Source: a virus
Length of the DNA stretch: 64,000 nt
Reading direction: 5' to 3' (one strand)
IMG/VR virus record: IMGVR_UViG_3300042945_001689
Location: 1 to 64,000 of that record
A program made the position numbers and the translations under genes. Positions 43,434 to 59,814 of this stretch are shown here, piece after piece (the first letter of the stretch is position 1; each line of letters opens with the position of its first letter). The notes beneath the pieces were generated by a model. That model did not search any database. It saw only the letters and a program-made list of their open reading frames with translations, and was not told where the DNA came from.

Positions 43434-44165
43434 CTACTTGTATGTTCTTTGTTCCCAAATTTTATTTTTATATACTCCACCATTTGGTTTTCTGTATATT
43501 TTACTATTTGCAATATTTTTATAAACTATAACATTTGAATTAATTATATTGAATTCACTTTCCCAATTATCCCTTTTAAATGGAATCATTTGAACTATTG
43601 GAGTACCTTTTGGTAATATTCCAGAAAATTCTTTATTTATAAAAAATGGCATGCTTCCTGGCAACAAGACCTTATCATTATCTACAATTCCAGAAACTGT
43701 ATAAAAAGGCAACTCAAACCTATTTAAAGGATGTGTATACAATACGCTATAACCCTCTGGAACTTGAATTCCCCAATCTGCAAACCAAGCAAAATGATCA
43801 TCTCTATATCCATGTGGTGTAACAAAACCATCCATTTTGCTTCTTGGTGTACAAAAATCTTTATATTTTAAGTCTTCTATTTCAACACTTAATCCATTTT
43901 CACTTTGTATAAAATTAATATCACACGGTGTTAAATATGTGTATCCAGATCCCATTACGTCAAAAACTGCTGGACAGGCCTTCCAAGTTGGCATTTTGCC
44001 ACCATCTTGCCCAATATAAAAATCATTATTTTGTGGATTTTTAATAAATCTATCCATTTTTCGATACCACTCTGGAATAGTTTTAAGTATAGATGTTGGC
44101 TTAAATAGACTGTCTTGGTTTAACCATGGTCTATTATTAGTAAAAATTATTTTTTTAATGTCCAT
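43434..44165 (-). CDS. DUF6065-related protein
   Basis: IPEWY...TWKACPAVFD..GSGY...PEGYSVLYTHPLNR...GIVDND...KGTPIVQMIPFKRDNW. Confidence 0.55.
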   Translation of the reverse strand: MDIKKIIFTNNRPWLNQDSLFKPTSILKTIPEWYRKMDRFIKNPQNNDFYIGQDGGKMPTWKACPAVFDVMGSGYTYLTPCDINFIQSENGLSVEIEDLKYKDFCTPRSKMDGFVTPHGYRDDHFAWFADWGIQVPEGYSVLYTHPLNRFELPFYTVSGIVDNDKVLLPGSMPFFINKEFSGILPKGTPIVQMIPFKRDNWESEFNIINSNVIVYKNIANSKIYRKPNGGVYKNKIWEQRTYK

Positions 44166-44881
44166 TATTTTTTTCTTTTATCATTTGTTTTTAATCTAAT
44201 TGTTTTTAATTCATGCTTTCCTACAGGAATATCTGATTCGTCTGTAGCATTTCTGTAAAAGTGTGTCCACTCACCAACTCTATTTTTTAATTGAGACACC
44301 TCTCCATATTTTTTATTTTTAATTTCATCTTCTTTAGAAAAAACATAATCATTAATATCTAATTCATATTGGTTTATGTTTTGTAAAGATATTGGAACAA
44401 TAGCAGCAATAGGAGTTTTTGCTGGAATTGTTATAACAACATTTGGTTTTGTAACTTTGGCTGCTAGTGGCAATGGATATCTAAAAAAAGAAGTAGAAAT
44501 AAGTGTTGTGTATAAATGAATTCCATCAATAAATAGATTTGGAACTGGCATTGTTAACAAAGTTGTATTTTCATCAGTAATAAATTTAGTAAATGTATCA
44601 AAACTTAGCGTTGCACTTCTTCTATTTTCATTGACATATTTGTTACCAGATAGGATAGTTATATGACCATCCTCTTTATCTGTATCAATTCCGTCCCAAA
44701 TAAAACTAATATCTTCATCAAAACTAATTCCCCAACCTAATGTATTTGAAATTGATAACGGAAAACAATGATATGCGTGTGCATTTGACACATTGTCCAT
44801 CCAATCTCTTTTAGCAGAAATTTGAGAGATGTTTACACCAGAATTTGGCATCATGTATGCATTAAAAACTTTATTAGTCAT
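44165..44881 (-). CDS. DUF6065-like protein
   Basis: KRDWMD...HAYHCFPLSISNTLGW; paralog of 56106..56825; start MTNKVF. Confidence 0.7.
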   Translation of the reverse strand: MTNKVFNAYMMPNSGVNISQISAKRDWMDNVSNAHAYHCFPLSISNTLGWGISFDEDISFIWDGIDTDKEDGHITILSGNKYVNENRRSATLSFDTFTKFITDENTTLLTMPVPNLFIDGIHLYTTLISTSFFRYPLPLAAKVTKPNVVITIPAKTPIAAIVPISLQNINQYELDINDYVFSKEDEIKNKKYGEVSQLKNRVGEWTHFYRNATDESDIPVGKHELKTIRLKTNDKRKK

Positions 44882-45554
44882 TTGTTTCTTCATGAAGGTC
44901 TGGCCTATGATATTTTGCGCTATAATCAAGCATTGTTACTAACGAATATTTTGTTCCAGATACCACTGGCATTGCTGTATGAGGATACATATAGTTTGAT
45001 GGAAAAATATATAAATCACCTGCCTGTGGTTTAACTTTTATTCCTTGTAGTCTAAAATCCAACTCTCCACCTTCGTAATCATCATTTAAATATCCTACTA
45101 AAGAAACTACACAGTTATATGTAGGACCTTGATCATGATGCTCTTGAAAATGTTGTCCTGGACCATATTTTATAAAATTAAATGATTCCCAGTATCTTAG
45201 TTCTCCAACACGAAAAAAATGAGAGTAGTCTTTAACTGCTGGAAGTTGTAAGTCATAACAGTCCTGCCAGACTTCTTGCAGCAAAACTGATTGAACGCTT
45301 TTATCATTCAGTAAATTTTCTTTTCTATATTTAAAATCAACACAGTCTCTATATTCTGGAATTTTTTGGGCATATCCAACTAAAGCCTCTCTCCAAAAAT
45401 AATTTGGATTTTTGCCTGTTAGACTATTTTCTAGTCTACTAATTATTTTCATGTCTTTTTTAAATACATTTCTATAAACTGCTATTCCATCTGCAAGTAA
45501 TTCTTTACTATCCCAAGTTGGATTTTCAACAACATTTGGTTCAAAATTAATCAT
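44874..45554 (-). CDS. Prolyl-4-hydroxylase-like 2OG-Fe(II) oxygenase
   Basis: HHD...YLNDDYEGGEL...IFPSNYMYPH..MPVVSGTKY. Confidence 0.88.
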   Translation of the reverse strand: MINFEPNVVENPTWDSKELLADGIAVYRNVFKKDMKIISRLENSLTGKNPNYFWREALVGYAQKIPEYRDCVDFKYRKENLLNDKSVQSVLLQEVWQDCYDLQLPAVKDYSHFFRVGELRYWESFNFIKYGPGQHFQEHHDQGPTYNCVVSLVGYLNDDYEGGELDFRLQGIKVKPQAGDLYIFPSNYMYPHTAMPVVSGTKYSLVTMLDYSAKYHRPDLHEETND

Positions 45555-46285
45555 TGTTGCCTTTCTGTGTAAGTATACTTATGTCCCAATTCATTAATAT
45601 CTGTCATAATAACAATACAATATTTTGTTCCATTAACCATGTCCATTGACGCATGCTCATAAATATAATTAGATGGAAAAATTGCTATATCACCAAACTT
45701 TGGTTTATAAACTAAGTTGTCTAGCCTTGGAAAAAATAATTCTCCGCCTTCATAATCATCATTTAAATAAATTACAACAGAAACTGTTGTATTATATGCT
45801 GGACCGTGATCTGCATGAATTCTAAATTGCTGTCCTACACCTTCATACTTTACAAAATTAAATGCTTCATAATAGACCACATTAATTCCCCAATAACGAG
45901 CATAGTCATCAACACATAATTTTAAAGTATTGTAAATTTCTTCATACATATCAATTAATTCAGCATTTTGCTCATCTCTTGCTCCCAGAGAATAAGGATT
46001 ATACTTAAAATCAGAGCAGTTTCTAGCATACTTTATTGGTTGATCTGAGTTTGTAACTTTTGCTTCATTCCACTTATACCTTGTTTGTCCATTTAAATTA
46101 TTTTCTAATATACTTAAATATTTTTCACAATTTTCTTTTGAAATTGCATTATTATAGATATTTAAACCTAATCCTGGATTGCTTACTTTAATATTATTAA
46201 AAGTTTTGTCTGGCATTCTAAAAGATGCAGATTCTGACCTATCTTTTGTAAACCAAGGATTTTGTGATTCATTTACTTCAATCAT
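45551..46285 (-). CDS. Prolyl-4-hydroxylase-like 2OG-Fe(II) oxygenase
   Basis: HAD...YLNDDYEGGELFF...IFPSNYIYEH...GTKY. Confidence 0.88.
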   Translation of the reverse strand: MIEVNESQNPWFTKDRSESASFRMPDKTFNNIKVSNPGLGLNIYNNAISKENCEKYLSILENNLNGQTRYKWNEAKVTNSDQPIKYARNCSDFKYNPYSLGARDEQNAELIDMYEEIYNTLKLCVDDYARYWGINVVYYEAFNFVKYEGVGQQFRIHADHGPAYNTTVSVVIYLNDDYEGGELFFPRLDNLVYKPKFGDIAIFPSNYIYEHASMDMVNGTKYCIVIMTDINELGHKYTYTERQQ

Positions 46286-46343: not shown

Positions 46344-47648
46344 TTATTCAATACTTTGATCTCTTGTGTCATATACTAACATATTTTCTGTAAAGAAGTT
46401 GTCGTATGGTTCACAGTTAATCGAATATACTGTTTCTTCATAATTTAGAACGTCTAATGAATCAATATTGACAAACCCTAACTCTTCATATGAATATACC
46501 ATATATGTGTCATCAATTGAATCAATTCTTAAGAATTTTGAAACATTATCTTTTTTAGTTAAAATATAATGCGTTTCAGAATATGCATCGCCGTTAAGAA
46601 GATATACTTTATCTACTTGCTTTGATGATACTGCATAAACTGTAGTTTCTCTTAAATTGGTTTCATTTAGGATTAAGTCTTCTGCTGTCCAATTTAACCA
46701 ATCAGCGTTATGTGCTGAGGCTTGTTCTGGAAGTTCCATAGCAATTAAAACATCTCCTACAACTATGTCTTTGGCTTCTTTTCTGCCATTGGTAGTCATG
46801 ATGCCTGTATTGCTGGCAATGGAATACTCTGAGAATCCAAACCCTGGGAAAAATGGTCCGAATGGTGGTGGGAATGGTGGTGGGAATGGTGGTGGGAATG
46901 GTGGTGGGAATGGTGGTGGGAATGGTGGTGGTGCGAAACTTGGGAAGAACGGAAAGAACGGGAAGAATGGGAAAAATGGGAAGAATGGGAAGAATGGTGA
47001 AAGTGTAGTAACGCTAGAAGTTGTTGCTCCTAATGATGCTCCATTAGCATTTGTTGCAGTAACAGTGTAAGTCTGTGAAGTTCCTGCTGTATCAGCAATA
47101 GTTGATGATGTTGCTGATGATGCTAAATCTCCAGAAGAAGTTCCGTCAGAACCAGTAACGTTATGCTTAGATAAAGCCTTTCCACCAGTGGCACCAATTG
47201 TCCAACTGATTGTGTTTTGGTTAACACCAGCACTGGCGACCGCACCTTGAGGCGCTTGTGGAACTGTTGTTGCAGTTACTGAAGAAGAAGTTGTTCCGCT
47301 TGCAGTTCCTGCAGCGTTTGTTCCTTTTACTGTAAATGTGTATGAAGTATTTGATGCTAATCCCTGAAAAGTATAAGAAGGAGTGGAAGAGCCAGTATTT
47401 ACTTCGTAAGTTGAGGGGGTTGTTGTAATGATATAAGCAGTTGCTGCTGGAGATCCCGCTGGCAATGTCCAAGTAAGGCTTACTGCTCCACCTGTGCCTG
47501 CTGCAGATGCTGCTGAAGTAGTATTAGCAGTAGCAAGATAAGGACGAGATGTTCCTACATCTGTACCACTTAAGGAAGTAACATTATCTGGTTGCAAAAA
47601 GTTGTCTTGTGCTGAAGACTTGATACCTCTTTTTTTACTAACTGCCAT
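46344..47648 (-). CDS. Two FN3-like domains + (PFF)6/(PPPF)6 repeats + C-terminal Hint domain (copy A)
   Basis: FN3 signatures (LTWT...Y...GLASNTSYTFTV..TN); repeats; Hint from Ser276 (SIASNTGIMTTNGRKEAKDIVVGD...SETH...VYSINCEPYDNFFTENMLVYD). Confidence 0.85.
   Translation of the reverse strand: MAVSKKRGIKSSAQDNFLQPDNVTSLSGTDVGTSRPYLATANTTSAASAAGTGGAVSLTWTLPAGSPAATAYIITTTPSTYEVNTGSSTPSYTFQGLASNTSYTFTVKGTNAAGTASGTTSSSVTATTVPQAPQGAVASAGVNQNTISWTIGATGGKALSKHNVTGSDGTSSGDLASSATSSTIADTAGTSQTYTVTATNANGASLGATTSSVTTLSPFFPFFPFFPFFPFFPFFPSFAPPPFPPPFPPPFPPPFPPPFPPPFGPFFPGFGFSEYSIASNTGIMTTNGRKEAKDIVVGDVLIAMELPEQASAHNADWLNWTAEDLILNETNLRETTVYAVSSKQVDKVYLLNGDAYSETHYILTKKDNVSKFLRIDSIDDTYMVYSYEELGFVNIDSLDVLNYEETVYSINCEPYDNFFTENMLVYDTRDQSIE
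46861..46932 (-). repeat. 12-bp tandem repeat x6 encoding PPPF
   Basis: AATGGTGGTGG(G) repeated on the plus strand. Confidence 0.95.
46942..46998 (-). repeat. Degenerate 9-bp tandem repeat x6 encoding PFF
   Basis: GGGAAGAA(C/T)-type units. Confidence 0.9.
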
Positions 47649-47679: not shown

Positions 47680-49623
47680 TTATGCTTTTAAATCTCCCAT
47701 TACAACCCAAAGATTTGCTGCTCTCTTAAATAATGTTGCTGATGACCATTGTGCACGAAGTTTTAATCCAGGAGTTGCATTTACTGTTGTTGTTCCTGGT
47801 GTTACTGCTTCAATTGTCACTTCGCCAGTATTTGTTCGAAGAATATCAATTGATGTTCCGACTGGATAATTAAGTGTAGCATCTGTTGGGATTAAAACCT
47901 TAACTGCAGTTCCACCTGTATGTGAAACTTCAATTAATGAGTCTCTTTCATTTGCTGCTGAAAGGGTGTATTCTGCTGTCTTCTGAATAATTGATGTCCG
48001 TGATGGAACACCTTCTTTTGTTTGTGTACCGTCGGTAAAAATAAATCCACCAGCAGTTGTACTAATAACTGAAGTTCCGTTTACTTTAAGATCTTTTCCT
48101 GAAGCAAGGTTGATATGCTCGGAAGATGTCCAAGAATCTGTAGAATCTACCCAGTTAAAGGTTTTGTCTGTTGCGCCTTTAAGTGTAATACCTCCGCCAT
48201 CTGCAGTTGTATCAGTAGGAGTTCCTGTATCTCCAAGAACAATGTTTTTGTCTTCAATAACAAGGTTAGTTGAGTTAAGGTTTGTTGTAGTTCCATTAAT
48301 CGTTAAGTTTCCAGAAAGAGTTAAGTCTGTTCCAGAAACGGCTCCTGTAAATGTTGCTCCAGTAAGAGAAGCCTTAGCGTCTAACTGTGTTTGAATGGCT
48401 GAAGTTACCCCATCAACGTAGTTAAGTTCTGTAGTTGATGTGGTTACACCATCAAGAATGTTAAGTTCTGCTGCTGTAGAAGTAATAGAACTTCCAGCAA
48501 TCTGTAAAGTTGTGGCGTTTACTTCGCCTGCAGAGCCATAAATAACTGCTTTGCTATTTGCAATAGTTCCTGCTGATGATCCATCTACTAAGTTAAGTTC
48601 TGCTGCTGTAGAAGTAATAGAAGTGCCAGCAATTTGTAAAGTTGTAGCATTTACTTGGCCTGCTGGACCATAAATTACTGCCTTGCTATCTACAATTGTT
48701 CCAGCAATAGATCCATCTATTAAATTAACTTCTGATGCTGTTGCAGTGACATCTGTTGCACCTGCTGAAAGAACATGTGTATGACCTGTTCCTGCTTTTC
48801 CATCAATCTGTCCTTGAATTCCAGCAGAAACTCCTTCTAGGTACCCTATTTCTGTTGAAGATAGATCTCCAATTGATGTGGTACTTGGAAGAGTTACTGT
48901 TCCAGTAAATGTAGGACCTGCTAGTGCTGCTTTAGCATCTAACTGAGTTTGAATTGCTGAGGTTACACCATTAAGATAACTAATTTCAGTATTTGATACA
49001 TCTGCAACAACTGCTTGCTTATTGTCTAATTGTGTTTGAATTGCTGAAGTAACACCAGCAAGATATCCTAATTCTGTTGATGTTGCACCAGTTGCACTAA
49101 GGTTTCCTGTTGTAACAACAGTTCCGCTTACGTTTGGAAATGTAATAGTTCTATCGGCTGTAGGATCTGTTACTGTTAAAGTGGTTTCATAATCGTTTGC
49201 TGTAGTACCTTCAAAAACAATTCCTGTTGTAGCATTAATTGTTGTGCTGTTAATAGTAGTGGTTGTACCACTTACTGTTAAATCTCCTGAAACGGTAACG
49301 TTTCCACTACCATCGGACAAAACAACTGTGCCTGTTGCATCTGGAAATGTAATTGTACGGTCTGCTGTAGGATCTGTTACGGCAAGAGTTGTTTCAAATG
49401 CGTTGTCTGTAGCACCTTCAAATGTAATGCTTGAACCAAATGATGGGTTTACTGTAGAGGATTGGTCAATAAAGTAGTCAATATTTGCCCAGTGGTTAGT
49501 GCCATCACCGATCTTAAACTTATTAGTGTCTGATTCCCATCCGATTTCACCAGCATTTAGTATTGGGTTTGCTGATGTCCATTGTGCTGCAGTACCTCTG
49601 CGTTGCTGCATTCTTGTTGCCAT
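47680..49623 (-). CDS. Tail fibre-like protein
   Basis: N-terminal MQQRRGTAAQWTSANPIL..GEIGWE.DT.KFKIGDG module; Thr/Gly-rich internal repeats; C-terminal LRAQWSSATL.KR...W...GDL domain. Confidence 0.8.
   Translation of the reverse strand: MATRMQQRRGTAAQWTSANPILNAGEIGWESDTNKFKIGDGTNHWANIDYFIDQSSTVNPSFGSSITFEGATDNAFETTLAVTDPTADRTITFPDATGTVVLSDGSGNVTVSGDLTVSGTTTTINSTTINATTGIVFEGTTANDYETTLTVTDPTADRTITFPNVSGTVVTTGNLSATGATSTELGYLAGVTSAIQTQLDNKQAVVADVSNTEISYLNGVTSAIQTQLDAKAALAGPTFTGTVTLPSTTSIGDLSSTEIGYLEGVSAGIQGQIDGKAGTGHTHVLSAGATDVTATASEVNLIDGSIAGTIVDSKAVIYGPAGQVNATTLQIAGTSITSTAAELNLVDGSSAGTIANSKAVIYGSAGEVNATTLQIAGSSITSTAAELNILDGVTTSTTELNYVDGVTSAIQTQLDAKASLTGATFTGAVSGTDLTLSGNLTINGTTTNLNSTNLVIEDKNIVLGDTGTPTDTTADGGGITLKGATDKTFNWVDSTDSWTSSEHINLASGKDLKVNGTSVISTTAGGFIFTDGTQTKEGVPSRTSIIQKTAEYTLSAANERDSLIEVSHTGGTAVKVLIPTDATLNYPVGTSIDILRTNTGEVTIEAVTPGTTTVNATPGLKLRAQWSSATLFKRAANLWVVMGDLKA
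48460..48725 (-). repeat. 132-bp (44-aa) tandem duplication within fibre gene
   Basis: ELNLVDGSSAGTIANSKAVIYG.AGEVNATTLQIAG.SITSTAA unit twice; GTTAAGTTCTGCTGCTGTAGAAGTAATAGA at 48460 and 48592. Confidence 0.85.
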
Positions 49624-54833: not shown

Positions 54834-55424
54834 TTAATTTTTATTAACATATTTATTTCTAATTTCATTTTCAAATATTCTGTATTTAGTTGGAATCCAA
54901 AAAGATGGTGTGGTATATCTTGTGCCTTTTGTTATCTCCCGCACACCGTGTATATACATTGTGTTTGATGGGAAAAATACCAATGTACCAGCACTAGGTT
55001 TAAAGTCTAAGTTATGATCTGGGAAGTATATCTCTCCGCCTTCGTAGTCATCGTTCAAATATATAACAGCCCCATAGTCAACTATAAATGCTTCATTTGG
55101 ATGTCCTTCTGGATCTTCTCCATCTGCATGTAGTGGTTGAAACTCTCCTGCGTCCCATCTTCTTATTCCAGCAGAATTTGTTTCAAGAGGTCTTCCAAAA
55201 TAAAGTTCTATCTCTTGCTGTACTCTATCAATTGCTTTTTTTAGTATGGCATGGGCCTCTGGCTTTTCAGAAGCAAGATTTCTTGTTACTTTGTCTGGTA
55301 TTCCAGCCATTGAATTAGAACCCCAAGAAATTGTATCGTCTATTGATGATAATACAATGTCTAAATCTTTCTTTGAAACAAAATTTTCTTTTATAACAAT
55401 ATTTTTTGTAGATCCTATTTTCAT
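54834..55424 (-). CDS. Prolyl-4-hydroxylase-like 2OG-Fe(II) oxygenase
   Basis: QPLHADGE...YLNDDYEGGEIYF...HGV..ITKGTRY. Confidence 0.88.
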   Translation of the reverse strand: MKIGSTKNIVIKENFVSKKDLDIVLSSIDDTISWGSNSMAGIPDKVTRNLASEKPEAHAILKKAIDRVQQEIELYFGRPLETNSAGIRRWDAGEFQPLHADGEDPEGHPNEAFIVDYGAVIYLNDDYEGGEIYFPDHNLDFKPSAGTLVFFPSNTMYIHGVREITKGTRYTTPSFWIPTKYRIFENEIRNKYVNKN

Positions 55425-55433
55425 TTTTTCTCC

Positions 55434-55592
55434 TTAATTAGGTAACTCTGATTGCTCTGCTATTTCTTTTACTTTGTCAAAGTTTGATGCATCAACCATT
55501 GAAGATAAAACATAACATATCCATTGATAAGATGACTTTTCGCAATACCCCTTTGACTGCATAATTTTAGCAATATCTTCTATAATTTCCAT
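55434..55592 (-). CDS. Small hypothetical protein, 52 aa
   Basis: Not in ORF track: MEIIEDIAKIMQSKGYCEKSSYQWICYVLSSMVDASNFDKVKEIAEQSELPN; TAATG overlap upstream; stop abuts the next SD. Confidence 0.6.
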   Translation of the reverse strand: MEIIEDIAKIMQSKGYCEKSSYQWICYVLSSMVDASNFDKVKEIAEQSELPN

Positions 55593-56113
55593 TACTTATA
55601 CTCCAAAAATATGTTAATTGCATATCTTGTTCCAGAATGAACCTGATGCGCTATGTGCATATATGGGTAGTTTGATGGAAATAATACCATAGAATTTTTT
55701 ACTGGCTTAACTTTAATGTCAAAGTTGCAAAATTCTATCTCTCCGCCTTCGTAGTCATCGTTTAAATATATAACGCAACTAGTAACTCTGTTAGAAACAT
55801 GCTTTGAGCCATCATCATAGTGCATTACATACTTTTCTCCAGGCTCGTATTTTAATGCCTCTATTGTAAGATATGTTAGTTCTGGAAGAAAATATAAATC
55901 ACGATATGCACTTAAAGAACTATGCAGCGCCTCATCTATAATTTTAAAAATTTCTTTTTGCAACTCTTTGTCTTGAAAGTATATGACTGAATTAGATCTA
56001 TCTTCTGTTTTTACATTTAGTGGTTTTGTCCACTCATACTTATTAATTTCTTTAATTAATAAATCTGAATTATTCAAAACATTATAATAAAACTCTATTC
56101 CGTTTTTATTCAT
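55592..56113 (-). CDS. Prolyl-4-hydroxylase-like 2OG-Fe(II) oxygenase
   Basis: HYD...YLNDDYEGGEIEF...FPSNYPYMH...SGTRY. Confidence 0.88.
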   Translation of the reverse strand: MNKNGIEFYYNVLNNSDLLIKEINKYEWTKPLNVKTEDRSNSVIYFQDKELQKEIFKIIDEALHSSLSAYRDLYFLPELTYLTIEALKYEPGEKYVMHYDDGSKHVSNRVTSCVIYLNDDYEGGEIEFCNFDIKVKPVKNSMVLFPSNYPYMHIAHQVHSGTRYAINIFLEYK

Positions 56114-56825
56114 TTTTTTTCCTTATGTCTTTGGTATGCAACTTTATTTTTTTTACTTCGTGTGATCCAACAGAATTGCCAAATTGATCAGTAGCGCTTC
56201 GATAAAAATCAGAAAACTTTGGAATTTTATTATTTTCTAATATTACATTTCCATAGTCTGTTACTTTTTTATGGTATTCATTAATATTATGTGGATTATT
56301 ATTTAAAGTAATTGTAGAATTTTGTAAATTTGTTAAAGATATTGGCAAAACAGAAATAATTGGAGAGTTTGCTTTAAACGTAATAACAGTGTTTGGCCTT
56401 GTAATTTTCCAAGATACTGGTATAGGTTTTTGCCAAAAACTAGAACTAATTAAGTTTGTTAACGGAACTGCGCCATCAATGTCTAAATTTGGTGGACCAA
56501 AAAACAATAAACTAGTTTCTGGATTTGTTTCAAAAAACCAACCTATATTAAAAATTAGTGTTGCAGTTCCTCTGTTAGTGTCAACAAATTCTTTACCTTT
56601 TAAAACCGTTATGTGATTTCCTTCAGAAGAGTCGTTTCCATCCCAAACAACAGAAATATCTTTGGGGAATGAAAATCCCCATCCCATTTGATTTGTTAAC
56701 GATAAAGGAAAACACCTGTATGCATGTTGATCAAATGTTTTATCCATCCAGTCTCTTTTTAAAGAAAGTTGTTCTATTCTTGCACCTAAACCTGGATTTA
56801 CTTCATATGCATTGATTTCATACAT
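56106..56825 (-). CDS. DUF6065-like protein
   Basis: KRDWMD...HAYRCFPLSLTNQMGW. Confidence 0.72.
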   Translation of the reverse strand: MYEINAYEVNPGLGARIEQLSLKRDWMDKTFDQHAYRCFPLSLTNQMGWGFSFPKDISVVWDGNDSSEGNHITVLKGKEFVDTNRGTATLIFNIGWFFETNPETSLLFFGPPNLDIDGAVPLTNLISSSFWQKPIPVSWKITRPNTVITFKANSPIISVLPISLTNLQNSTITLNNNPHNINEYHKKVTDYGNVILENNKIPKFSDFYRSATDQFGNSVGSHEVKKIKLHTKDIRKKNE

Positions 56826-57488
56826 TTATTGTTTTTGCCTTAGTGGAGAGTTTGCTCCGTGTACCCTATCATTATAGTCAAACATTGTTACTGCAGAATA
56901 TTTTATTCCTTCTTTTACAGGCAAAGCAGCATGAGAATATAAAAAGTTTGATGGGAACAAAACAATATCTCCCTCTTCTGGAGTATAAGTATAGTTTATG
57001 TATGGGAAAAACAATTCTCCTCCAGTATAGTTGTCATTTAAATACATAACTGTAGAAACAGTACATACATAACTAAAACCATGATCTGAATGAACCTGAA
57101 AGTGTTGATCTTTTCCATATCTAACAAAATTAACTGCTTCTTGATACTCTAAGTTTAAATTAAAAAGTGAAGAATAATGTTTTACACATTCCTGTAGTCG
57201 TTCATCTATGTCAAAGTATATTTTTCTTAAATCTGACATAGTTGCTCTTGGGTTATTTACAAAATCATTTTTTCTTACTTTAAAGTCTACGCAATCTCTA
57301 TAATCTTTTCTTGTTTCATAATCACCAACTTGTGCTTCGCTCCATTTGAAAAAATTATCGCCATGTTTTTCAATAACATCTTCAAGTCGCTGAACAAGAT
57401 TTAAGTCTTTATTAAGCGCATTTTTATAAACGAATACAGCAGGCGCAGGATTTTCTATAGTGGTTGTTTCTATAAAGTTAGATAACAT
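56826..57488 (-). CDS. Prolyl-4-hydroxylase-like 2OG-Fe(II) oxygenase
   Basis: HSD...YLNDNYTGGELFF...FPSNFLYSH...GIKY; paralog of 44874..45554 (shared YRDCVDFK, VTM.DY). Confidence 0.88.
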   Translation of the reverse strand: MLSNFIETTTIENPAPAVFVYKNALNKDLNLVQRLEDVIEKHGDNFFKWSEAQVGDYETRKDYRDCVDFKVRKNDFVNNPRATMSDLRKIYFDIDERLQECVKHYSSLFNLNLEYQEAVNFVRYGKDQHFQVHSDHGFSYVCTVSTVMYLNDNYTGGELFFPYINYTYTPEEGDIVLFPSNFLYSHAALPVKEGIKYSAVTMFDYNDRVHGANSPLRQKQ

Positions 57489-57512
57489 TTAATCTCCTTT
57501 TTGGTCAATATA

Positions 57513-57522
57513 TAGTATACTA
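57513..57522. promoter_or_regulatory. Palindromic bidirectional -10 element
   Basis: TAGTATACTA gives TATACT on both strands within a 39-bp gap between divergent genes. Confidence 0.6.
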
Positions 57523-57527
57523 CATAT

Positions 57528-58112
57528 ATGGACAATATGTATAAGGTACAACCTGGCTATTTTGGGGACTCTGTTGATAATATCATTGTTTTAGAAAATT
57601 TTATAAGTCCAGATGACTTAGATAAATTTTACTTTTACTCTAAATCAATAGAAAATTTTTTATCCATACCTGATGACAACTGGGACAACAGGGTTCATAG
57701 TTCAGAGTTATTTAAAAATAGTAATAAGGCATTATTTCTTAAACTTTTAGAATATCAAAAAAAATTAAAAATAGAAATAGAAAAAAGATTTAACTTTGTT
57801 TTACAAGAAAATTCACCATCAATAGTTCTTTGGAGACCTGGAGACGATCAGCCTCCTCATGCAGACAAACAGGAGCAAGATGGTAATCCAAATTCTTATC
57901 CTGAAAATGATGTGGCATCCCTAATGTATATAAACGACAATTATGATGGTGGAGAAATATACTTTACTAACCAGGATATAACCATAAAGCCCAAGGCTGG
58001 TTCTGCAATATTTTTTCCTGGAGATATACATTATACTCATGGGGTAACAAAAGTATTAAATAACAACAGATATACATCGCCAGCATTTTGGCGTGTAAAA
58101 AACTTTAATTAA
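57528..58112 (+). CDS. Prolyl-4-hydroxylase-like 2OG-Fe(II) oxygenase, inverted orientation
   Basis: QPPHADK...YINDNYDGGEIYF...HGV...RYTSPAFW; similar to 54834..55424. Confidence 0.88.
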   Translation: MDNMYKVQPGYFGDSVDNIIVLENFISPDDLDKFYFYSKSIENFLSIPDDNWDNRVHSSELFKNSNKALFLKLLEYQKKLKIEIEKRFNFVLQENSPSIVLWRPGDDQPPHADKQEQDGNPNSYPENDVASLMYINDNYDGGEIYFTNQDITIKPKAGSAIFFPGDIHYTHGVTKVLNNNRYTSPAFWRVKNFN

Positions 58113-59014
58113 ATATTATCCCTAACATCAAAAACCAACATATTTTCTGTAAAGAAATTATCATATGGTTCGCAATTGATTGAATAAACCGTATCTTCAT
58201 ATTCTATAATATCGAACACTTCTATTGGAACAAACTGTAGATCAGCAAAAGAGTATACAAAATATGAACTATCAATTTCTGATGTTTGTATAAATTTAAC
58301 AACATTATCTTTTTTAGTTAAAATATAATGCGTTCCCGAATATGCATCTCCGTTAATTATATAAAGTGTACCGATAGGTCTTGAGGTAATAGAAACAACC
58401 TCTGTTTCTCTTAAATTGGTTTCATCTAATAATAAATCTTCTTTACTCCAAGTTGTCCAATCAGAAACATTGTTGGTATCTAAATCCATAGCAACCAAAA
58501 CGTCTCCTACTACAATATCTTTAGCGTCTTTTCTTCCATTAATAGTTATAATTCCAGTATTGCTTGCAATGGAATATTCTGAATAGACTCCAAACCCTGG
58601 GAAAAATGGTGGTATTGGGAACGGTGGTGGGAACGGTGGTGGGGCAACGGCGAACGGTGGTGGGAACGGTGGTGGGAACGGTGGTGGGAACGGTGGTGGT
58701 GCTGGGGCTACTGGAGTAACAGAATTACTTGCTGCAGATTCTAACGATGTAGCAACACCATTTCCTAGTTTTACTTTAAATGTATAGGCTGTTCCATTTG
58801 ACAAACCACTAACAGTTATTGGAGAAGTTGAAGATGTTCCTGTTATATCTGATGGAGTTGAAGTTGCAGTGTAAGTTGTTCCAATTGGTTTGCCTAAATA
58901 GGCTGGTGCTGTAAATGAAACTGTTGCTGTTTCATTACCTTCTGTTGCAGTTCCAATTGTTGGAGTTCCTGGTTGTATTCCTCCACTACCTGAAGATATT
59001 GGTGGTAATGGCAT
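58109..59014 (-). CDS. FN3-like domain + (PPPF)4+2 repeats + C-terminal Hint domain (copy B)
   Basis: PGTPTIGTA...VSFTAP...GLSNGTAYTF.V...SAASNSVTP; Hint from Ser148 (SIASNTGIITINGRKDAKDIVVGD...SGTH...VYSINCEPYDNFFTENMLVFD); start by TAATG overlap. Confidence 0.85.
   Translation of the reverse strand: MPLPPISSGSGGIQPGTPTIGTATEGNETATVSFTAPAYLGKPIGTTYTATSTPSDITGTSSTSPITVSGLSNGTAYTFKVKLGNGVATSLESAASNSVTPVAPAPPPFPPPFPPPFPPPFAVAPPPFPPPFPIPPFFPGFGVYSEYSIASNTGIITINGRKDAKDIVVGDVLVAMDLDTNNVSDWTTWSKEDLLLDETNLRETEVVSITSRPIGTLYIINGDAYSGTHYILTKKDNVVKFIQTSEIDSSYFVYSFADLQFVPIEVFDIIEYEDTVYSINCEPYDNFFTENMLVFDVRDNI
58619..58700 (-). repeat. Interrupted 12-bp tandem repeat (4+2) encoding PPPF
   Basis: AACGGTGGTGG(G) units on the plus strand. 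Confidence 0.92.
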
Positions 59015-59814
59015 TATGCACTCAGATCGCCAATTGCAATCCAAGTATTGGTTGCTCGTTTAATTAATGTACAAGATGAATACTGTGTTCTTAATTTTGC
59101 TGCATTTGAAGAAACTTGAGGTGTGCAATTTAGTGTAACTCCTGCAGTGACTACTACTGTTGTTGCTCCAGTTCCAGTTTGAATAATTGTAATTTGTGAA
59201 CCAATTGCAAATGCTTGAGTTGCATTAAGTGGAATAGTAACTGTATTTGCAGTTGATGTTAAATTCATTTCAATAATTTTATATGCATCTGACAAAACCA
59301 ATGCGTGATTTGCTGTTTTTTCTAAAATAGTAAAATCTAATGCAGATTTAGTATCTTGAACTGCTTTGACTGCAGTTGGTGTTGCTGCTTTAACTGATGA
59401 AGTCTCTGATGTTGAATCTGACAATTGAACAACTCCAGGTGTTGAAACTGATGCTGCTGTAGGTGCAGCCCATTTAAGACCAAATGTGCCCTGTGTTGAG
59501 TCTGCAGTTAAAATATGTCCATCGCTACCAACTGTTAAATTATCTAAATTATTATTTGATGTCCCTACTAAAAGATCGCCTTTAGCGTCAATGACAGTTT
59601 CTTCTACAGCATTTGTTAAAGTTGCATCAATTGCATCAATTCTTGTATCTATATCATCTAGATACTTTGAAATACCTGCGGTTGCTGTGCCTTCTGGCTC
59701 TGCTTCTTGTCCCCAATGATAATATTTAAGTGCAACCTGTATGTCGGCTGGATCAGCCATTGCTGGAATTTTTGCTAGGGGATACTTAGAACTTCCTATA
59801 TTTGTGGCTGCCAT
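59014..59814 (-). CDS. Short fibre-like structural protein
   Basis: DAKGDLLVG module; GVVQLSD...AATPTAVK tail-fibre repeat; C-terminal LRTQYSSCTL.KR...W...GDL domain. Confidence 0.7.
   Translation of the reverse strand: MAATNIGSSKYPLAKIPAMADPADIQVALKYYHWGQEAEPEGTATAGISKYLDDIDTRIDAIDATLTNAVEETVIDAKGDLLVGTSNNNLDNLTVGSDGHILTADSTQGTFGLKWAAPTAASVSTPGVVQLSDSTSETSSVKAATPTAVKAVQDTKSALDFTILEKTANHALVLSDAYKIIEMNLTSTANTVTIPLNATQAFAIGSQITIIQTGTGATTVVVTAGVTLNCTPQVSSNAAKLRTQYSSCTLIKRATNTWIAIGDLSA

Follow-up and report, generated by a model that had tools for sequence, protein, structure and literature searches.

The window analysed here is a stretch of 64,000 nucleotides (positions 1 to 64,000 of the IMG/VR virus record IMGVR_UViG_3300042945_001689) that carries on its minus strand two genes for proteins ending in a Hint domain, copy A (46344–47648) and copy B (58109–59014). 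In modelled structure the C-terminal domain of copy A is a genuine Hint fold, which settles a point on which sequence models are inconclusive. What does such a domain do at the very end of a phage protein? The reading that we favour, and consider fairly probable, is that of an active self-processing cap, similar to those of Hedgehog and of BIL proteins, which cuts itself off the finished protein. Established here are the fold, the correspondence of its residues with those of known Hint domains, purifying selection, the terminal position across a family and the existence of Hint-less orthologues. The window Hint is one class of a large phage family, a point that lay beyond the knowledge of an earlier note on this DNA, which a model had written from the sequence alone. 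The source record is 108 kb long, is estimated to be 99% complete and encodes portal, protease, major capsid, RNR and helicase genes; both Hint carriers are virion-type proteins of an uncultured phage.

An alignment of 18 Hint domains from the window and viral contigs (alignment A2) formed the basis of an AlphaFold2 model and of a sequence profile. The model of the Hint domain has a mean predicted local distance difference test score (pLDDT) of 90.1 and a predicted template modelling score (pTM) of 0.85. A Foldseek search of the PDB with this model returned 58 matches at E<=1e-3, and among the matches listed every one is a Hint domain, whether of an intein, a BIL or Hedgehog. The best was BIL2 of Tetrahymena BUBL1 (6y75, E 3.4e-08), next to which stand the Ssp DnaB intein (1mi8, E 1.7e-07), the C. 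thermocellum BIL (2lwy, E 2.7e-07) and Hedgehog (1at0, E 6.0e-05). Superposition by VIA-align on Hint structures gave Z 14–18.5 over 120–136 residues overall and Z 16.7–18.5 for BIL2, Ssp DnaB, Mtu RecA and Hedgehog; BIL2 (6y75) reached Z 18.5 at a root-mean-square deviation (rmsd) of 1.8 Å over 136 residues, Mtu RecA and Hedgehog Z 16.8–17.2. Model residues 4..155 lie on residues 1..440 of the Mtu RecA intein and model residue 4 lies on Hedgehog residue 258, a register that puts Ser276 of copy A on the residue-1 nucleophile (Cys1 of inteins, Cys258 of Hedgehog) and Asp427 on the terminal Asn. The Hint fold that the earlier note had proposed is borne out by this superposition.

The weak point of the identification is that curated sequence models miss their thresholds. 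Pfam Intein_splicing (PF14890) scores the window Hint domains at 17.0–26.4 bits, below its gathering cut-off of 35.8. No NCBIfam model matched the Hint proteins, a phmmer search with the Hint domain gave no match among PDB sequences, and the A2 profile retrieved from the same sequences nothing but the gp41-1 intein, matched in block A at E 0.07. The weak Pfam similarity and the gp41-1-like block A would speak for a true protein-splicing intein or its decaying remnant. We find this scarcely credible, for the domain is not inserted into a host protein, lacks a C-extein, a conserved +1 nucleophile and an endonuclease, and is held by purifying selection over hundreds of clusters and in two paralogues.

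Copy A, a protein of 434 amino acids defined by its open reading frame (ORF), a Pfam fn3 match (2.7e-08) and a full-length AlphaFold2 model, consists of an N-terminal module with two FN3-like domains, a Pro/Phe repeat linker, the Hint domain and a tail of 7 residues. The predicted mature body, residues 1–215 (47004–47648), comprises the conserved N-terminus and the two FN3-like domains and is delimited by Pfam, AlphaFold2 and homologues of 225–237 residues; in the full-length model the beta domains at about 22–128 and 130–212 are both FN3-like. The low-complexity linker, residues 216–275 (46824–47003), runs as (PFF)n and then (PPPF)n and ends in ...GFGFSEY, its Tyr275 being the predicted new C-terminus. 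It is predicted to be disordered and is unstructured in the model (215–272, pLDDT<50), in which the Hint follows as residues 276–428 at a pLDDT of about 90. The C-terminal 159 residues (276–434) are this mini-Hint domain plus the tail. The Hint proper, as delimited by AlphaFold2 (pLDDT 90), Foldseek and VIA-align, extends from Ser276 to Asp427 (46368–46823), and its 152 residues leave no room for an endonuclease insert; the earlier note had likewise described a domain of about 150 residues without a homing endonuclease.

How much of the splicing machinery is left? We numbered residues by the block nomenclature of Mills, Johnson and Perler (PMC4031507) and placed the F-block positions by hand alignment of the motif with a canonical intein block F. 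The residues of the first step are kept, namely Ser at A:1, Ser or Thr at B:7 and His at B:10. In copy A they are Ser276 (codon 46821–46823), which heads the block-A-like stretch SIASNTG and is the predicted nucleophile of an N-O acyl shift, and Ser357 and His360 of block B, S357-E-T-H360 (46569–46580). The residues of Asn cyclisation are exchanged: His at F:13 for Asp416, His at G:6 for Tyr or Phe, and Asn at G:7 for Asp427. Blocks F/G of copy A start at V407 (VYSINCEPYDNFF...) and finish with Tyr426-Asp427; within S409–D427 (SINCEPYDNFFTENMLVYD, 46368–46424), F:4, usually Asp in inteins, is Ser409, F:7 is Cys412, and G:6 is Tyr426. On all of its sequence statements for this minus-strand gene (Ser276, SETH, the F/G stretch, the YD end and TRDQSIE) the earlier note was correct; its start at 46823 is exact to the base, and its exchange of the block-F Asp for Ser is the Ser409 described above. 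Its hint that the Cys of INC points to altered chemistry finds no support. We do not think Cys412 catalytic, because F:7 is hydrophobic in canonical inteins and sister classes with Ser1 and His retained have Thr or Val there. A class 3 mechanism operating through F:4 was rejected as well, since Ser1 is present and the WCT triplet is absent, with Ser at F:4, Ile at B:12 and Val at G:5.

Beyond Asp427 come only TRDQSIE and the stop codon (46344–46367, stop at 46344–46346), a tail which, as far as its length and variability tell, is too short and variable for a C-extein. Nor does read-through supply one, for the stop at 46344 is followed by the next ORF only after 58 nt (from 46285) and in another frame. 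Could the main reaction instead take place at this end, with Asp427 cyclising and so cutting away the 7-residue tail, whether or not the N-terminal junction is cleaved too? Nearly all members of the family retain a terminal Asp, Asn or Glu despite tiny tails, and a C-terminal Asp, Gln or Glu is on record for some inteins (PMC4031507). Yet the cyclisation-assisting His residues at F:13 and G:6 are both gone, removal of a tail that varies in length and sequence has no obvious purpose, and a further Asp three positions later hardly varies, which points to the start of the tail being part of the fold. We therefore hold C-terminal clipping to be very unlikely.

Copy B encodes 301 residues from the ATG at 59014, as judged from the ORF and from the starts of its homologues. 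This ATG, and not the TTG at 59044 where the program-made ORF begins, is most likely its real start because homologues begin MPLPPIS; its base 59014 is also the final base of the fibre ORF upstream (59014–59814). The protein has one FN3 domain, a PPPF linker, the Hint and the tail VRDNI. Its Hint runs from Ser148 (58571–58573) to Asp296 (58127–58129), with SGTH as block B and Phe-Asp as terminal pair before VRDNI. The first-step residues are kept in both paralogues despite an identity of 64% over the domain, and their agreement goes well beyond chance. At +1 copy A has Thr and copy B Val; the Phe-Asp class at large has R, T, S, V, Y, A, M or K there. When the PHROGs were searched, copy A gave no match and copy B a single one, to the C-terminal end of phrog_38766 ('virion structural protein'). 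A tblastn search with the whole copy A protein against 50,697 phage records was without a match, probably through low-complexity filtering; a Megablast search of the phage collection with 10 kb of the window was likewise without one, and no close cultured relative of the window phage turned up in that collection.

Selection acts on the active site at the level of the protein. The invariant columns of A2 are Ser1, a Thr at +5, a few Gly/Lys/Trp positions, His B:10 and the F/G stretch S-I-[NH]-C-E-P-Y-D-N-F-F-T-E-N-M-L-x-x-D. Ser1 is invariant in alignments A1 and A2 alike, and the -1 residue before it differs (Tyr, Asp, Glu, Asn, Lys, Phe or Met). The variable part of the domain is the loop between blocks A and B, the invariant part the active-site blocks. 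The 19-residue F/G motif is constant in protein among sequences that are 40–70% identical; its codons are 96% identical at positions 1 and 2 but only 62% at position 3, and Ser409 is encoded now by TCN, now by AGY. Because synonymous sites vary and Ser409 mixes the two codon types, the motif is under protein-level selection, and conservation at the nucleotide level, as for a recombination site or RNA element, was dropped as an explanation.

The window Hints belong to a family that is widespread among phages. A profile search across 1.84 billion representatives, with clusters formed at 50% identity, yielded 486 clusters at E<=1e-3 and 133 at E<=1e-10. Among the 150 matches listed, the Hint lies at the extreme C-terminus in nearly all, in carriers of about 150 to 1300 residues whose N-terminal parts (FN3 arrays, collagen-like repeats, PASTA, Cys-rich modules) are mutually unrelated; by this sequence comparison the Hint is a mobile and terminal module. 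Re-alignment of the collected proteins to the profile left 97 complete domains, of which all have Ser or Cys as residue 1 and 95 have His at B:10. By residue 1, block-B His and end they fall into Ser...His...Phe-Asp (39 clusters), Ser...His...His-Asp (32 clusters, with Ser at +1 in 25), Ser...His...Tyr-Asp (7), Ser...His...Tyr-Asn (7), Cys...His...His-Asn (6) and a few clusters with other ends. The tail beyond the terminal residue has a median of 5 residues across the family, and the block-F core E-P-Y-D is common to many members of all classes, which grade from Cys1/TxxH/His-Asn to Ser1/Phe- or Tyr-Asp. The canonical Cys1/TxxH/His-Asn form ends proteins within tail-fibre clusters of cultured jumbo phages: the carrier of phage NCTB is annotated as 'putative phage tail protein, contains intein domain', that of Yersinia phage fHe-Yen9-02 is gene 333c, a 'virion structural protein', and Erwinia phage pEa_SNUABM_2 also matches the family. 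BFVD gives the same picture, with the automatic names 'Hint domain containing protein' and 'Fibronectin type III' on proteins of uncultured Caudovirales. We found this large phage family of terminal Hint caps described in no paper; the literature searched holds no account of a terminal Hint on phage structural proteins, and the phiCbK, CBB and PaBG papers mention inteins only in terminase or RNR. Some Ser1...His-Asp members (P0107, P0097, P0094, P0115) bear C-terminal extensions of 40–98 residues after His-Asp-Ser and, going by their sequences, might be genuine Asp-ended splicing or C-cleaving elements. Some family members (P0093, P0122, P0175) have two Hint domains in tandem, the second of P0093 being without the block-B His.

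What becomes of the carrier when the Hint is missing? We compared 32 related viral loci, so that the co-occurrence counts given for them are not independent. They keep the order g50143-like fibre, g49672 homologue, fibre with an Mtd_N start, Hint gene, and in 31 of the 32 a fibre gene lies upstream of the Hint gene. Directly before Ser1 stands an aromatic low-complexity repeat in all 32 carriers, its unit differing by locus (PFF, PPPF, PPFF, PFS/PFA, GAF, FGFTP or HYAGFG). By searching with the N-terminal 215 residues among shorter proteins we found many homologues of 225–237 residues that comprise this N-terminal module, the FN3 pair and a Phe-rich repeat and end there; as they occur on contigs of up to 121 kb, they are not truncated by contig ends. 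In three loci (L037, L038 and L040, on contigs of 41–93 kb) such a gene occupies the same slot after the fibre, in the order g49672 homologue, fibre, gene. The end of its ORF follows directly on the Phe-rich repeat, and when 5 kb to each side were searched in six frames with the A2 profile, no Hint was found. Since this stand-alone gene equals the predicted N-terminal product, we argue that the FN3 protein works with its aromatic tail free and that the Hint is a cap it can dispense with.

Other relatives of the FN3 module (L042, L044–L049) run into long Gly-rich C-terminal regions (480–850 residues) and have no repeat and Hint, so that, to go by sequence, one N-terminal module is paired with several different ends. 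Each Hint gene of the window is itself preceded by a fibre-type gene on the minus strand (47680–49623 and 59014–59814). The first of these fibres begins with Mtd_N; common to both is a C-terminal domain with a match to the final part of phrog_8780 ('minor tail protein').

On the reading that we favour, processing would begin once the protein has folded. Ser276, aided by Ser357 and His360, would attack the Tyr275-Ser276 bond in an N-O acyl shift, and water would hydrolyse the resulting ester. The free 159-residue Hint fragment would then depart and leave a mature protein that ends at Tyr275 and comprises the N-terminal module, two FN3 domains and the Pro/Phe-rich tail. Asp416, Phe/Tyr426 and Asp427, the invariant Asp / Phe-Tyr / Asp set, may assist the weaker Ser nucleophile or the hydrolysis. 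Splicing would not occur, because there is no C-extein. We infer the cleavage itself, the resolution of the ester by water and also the biological purpose: the cap probably keeps the sticky aromatic repeat tail masked until folding or assembly, as S74 does for tailspikes. The earlier note had proposed an N-terminal cleavage or ligation module. The fold, the retained first-step residues and the replaced cyclisation residues support that much. For BIL domains mainly cleaved products have been reported (PMC7664689), and the Hint-less syntenic orthologues favour plain cleavage over obligatory ligation.

Several observations weigh against an active cap. Ser1 is a weaker nucleophile than Cys. F:4 is Ser409 in place of the Asp that helps the N-terminal step in class 1 inteins (PMC4031507), and B:7 is Ser or Thr in 37 of the 39 Phe-Asp-class clusters and Ala in the other 2. 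A simple N-terminal cleavage does not account for the strict invariance of Asp416, Phe/Tyr426 and Asp427, no cultured member of the Ser1/Phe-Tyr-Asp class was found in the phage collection, and Hint-less orthologues are also compatible with an optional Hint that stays attached. Might the domain then be catalytically silent and remain at the far end of a virion protein to serve structure, assembly or binding, its Ser1 and His being conserved for structural reasons? The exchange of the F:4 Asp, the His residues at F:13 and G:6 and the G:7 Asn all together would agree with this, as would the frequency of receptor binding among the C-terminal domains of fibre-type proteins and the optional nature of a domain that some orthologues do without. 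Receptor tips usually diversify, however, and here the active-site blocks are invariant and only the A-B loop varies; Ser1 remains invariant over a changing -1 residue, and the family is continuous with canonical Cys1/His-Asn members. We rate a silent Hint as rather unlikely.

A further possibility is that the cut is coupled to a transfer, the Tyr275 ester being passed to a Lys, Ser or Thr of the neighbouring fibre or another virion protein, or to a lipid or glycan, to leave a covalent tether like those made in Hedgehog cholesteroylation or BUBL/BIL2 isopeptide formation. For BIL2, structurally the closest match, coupling of the N-extein to lysines has been reported (PMC8616854). A transfer would give a role to the otherwise unexplained invariant Asp416/Asp427 set, and the gene neighbourhood speaks for it as well, with a fibre upstream in 31 of the 32 loci and a DUF6065-like gene, not found in the three Hint-less loci, downstream in 29. 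Against this, Hint-less orthologues keep the gene order without having an activated C-terminus, so that ligation is not essential; no sterol- or adduct-recognition region follows the Hint, just 3–7 variable residues; and the co-occurrence comes from few, related loci. Transfer in general thus seems to us improbable. We give equally little weight to a more specific version, in which the ester on a possibly hydroxylated tail would be handed to one specific nucleophile of the adjoining fibre, of a different virion component or of an envelope lipid or glycan, perhaps together with the DUF6065-like protein, and Asp416/Asp427 would adapt the Ser1 Hint to this task.

The DUF6065 or DUF6065-like gene of those 29 loci lies within 3 kb downstream of the Hint gene. 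Such genes are found in the window at 43434–44929 and 56106–56825, both on the minus strand, and elsewhere in L005–L032; in distant loci they lie 24–90 nt past the stop of the Hint gene, and none was detected in the Hint-less loci L037, L038 and L040. We rejected the 43434 protein as a close DUF6065 relative, since its BLASTP comparison is insignificant and the link comes from a language-model atlas only.

Genes for P4H-like 2OG-Fe(II) oxygenases (PF13640) also accompany the Hint genes, in the window at 44874–46285 (minus strand) and 54834–58112. Such a gene is present within 3 kb downstream of the Hint gene in all 11 loci whose linkers have Pro-Pro runs (PPPF, PPFF, PFFP) and absent in all 21 loci with GAF, FGFTP, HYAGFG or PFS/PFA linkers. 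Although the loci are related, so that these counts are not independent, the co-occurrence agrees with hydroxylation of linker prolines. The linker DNA of copy A contains tandem repeats of 12 nt x 6.0 at 100% match and of 9 nt x 6.3 (46860–46997), that of copy B a 12-nt x 7.2 tandem array (58616–58699). A 95%-identical relative (L001) differs in linker sequence and has an ORF two residues longer, which indicates that linker size probably shifts by slippage.

What would an active cap mean? Hint chemistry is already known from inteins, Hedgehog, bacterial BILs and ciliate BUBL loci. The 486 clusters of Hint domains at virion and fibre ends lie below the Pfam and NCBIfam thresholds and are absent from the literature searched. 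Were these caps active, phage appendages would widely mature by self-cleavage via an ester or thioester, a route that would stand beside the S74 chaperone domain. The class found here would then be a natural Ser1 module that needs neither Cys nor His-Asn at its termini and could interest engineers of self-cleaving tags. The series Cys1/His-Asn, Ser1/His-Asp, Ser1/Tyr-Asn and Ser1/Phe-Asp forms a natural set in which to follow how a Hint active site is rewired. Should the ligase reading be true, a phage particle would contain an ATP-free covalent assembly step of the Hedgehog or BUBL kind.

How, then, does the window domain compare with known systems? With the HINT superfamily it has in common the beta-horseshoe fold over its whole length, the residue-1 nucleophile and the B:10 His. 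It resembles the type A BIL of C. thermocellum (2lwy) in fold (Z 16.9, rmsd 1.8 Å, 130 residues), in its residue-1 nucleophile and block-B His, and in the lack of a +1 nucleophile. BILs finish in His-Asn and are embedded, with a flank on their C-terminal side, in the variable regions of proteins that bacteria secrete; the window Hint, unlike them, ends in Phe/Tyr-Asp, has Asp at F:13 and is terminal on a phage virion-type protein, although His-Asn relatives are nevertheless present in the phage family itself. Pfam Hint_2 is not among the Pfam matches of the window proteins. The closest structure, BIL2 of Tetrahymena thermophila BUBL1 (6y75, 6tmm), is only about 16% identical in sequence; it has Cys1 and a terminal Asn, lies between ubiquitin-like domains and makes isopeptide conjugates (PMC8616854).

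The Hog domain of Hedgehog (1at0) is likewise C-terminal in its precursor, needs only the first acyl-shift step and releases a functional N-fragment, and its fold matches at Z 16.8 with model residue 4 on Cys258. Hog has Cys1 and a sterol-recognition region for cholesterol transfer, whereas the window Hints have Ser1 and only 5–7 residues after the Hint. Class 1 mini-inteins (Ssp DnaB 1mi8, Mtu RecA 2in0, gp41-1 6qaz) have blocks A, B, F and G in the same register, and both Ser1 and a terminal Asp are present among functional inteins, the Asp-ended ones having a C-extein (PMC4031507). The window domains differ from class 1 in having no exteins to join (7 or 5 residues follow) and no conserved Cys, Ser or Thr at +1, in the changes at F:4, F:13 and G:6, in the absence of His-Asn and in scoring under the Pfam gathering threshold; from class 3 they differ in having a residue-1 nucleophile, no Cys at F:4 and no WCT. 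Peptidase S74, a C-terminal domain of phage tailspikes and of fibre proteins that have low-complexity parts, is a working analogy only: this intramolecular-chaperone domain cuts itself off at a Ser after folding (PMC7824862), and it has an unrelated fold and Ser-Lys dyad chemistry, with no sequence or structural match here. Sharing the features of the HINT superfamily and departing from each of the narrower families, the window domains make up a Ser1/Phe-Tyr-Asp class of a phage-specific family of terminal Hints, which in its working is most like a BIL or Hedgehog-type autoprocessing domain.

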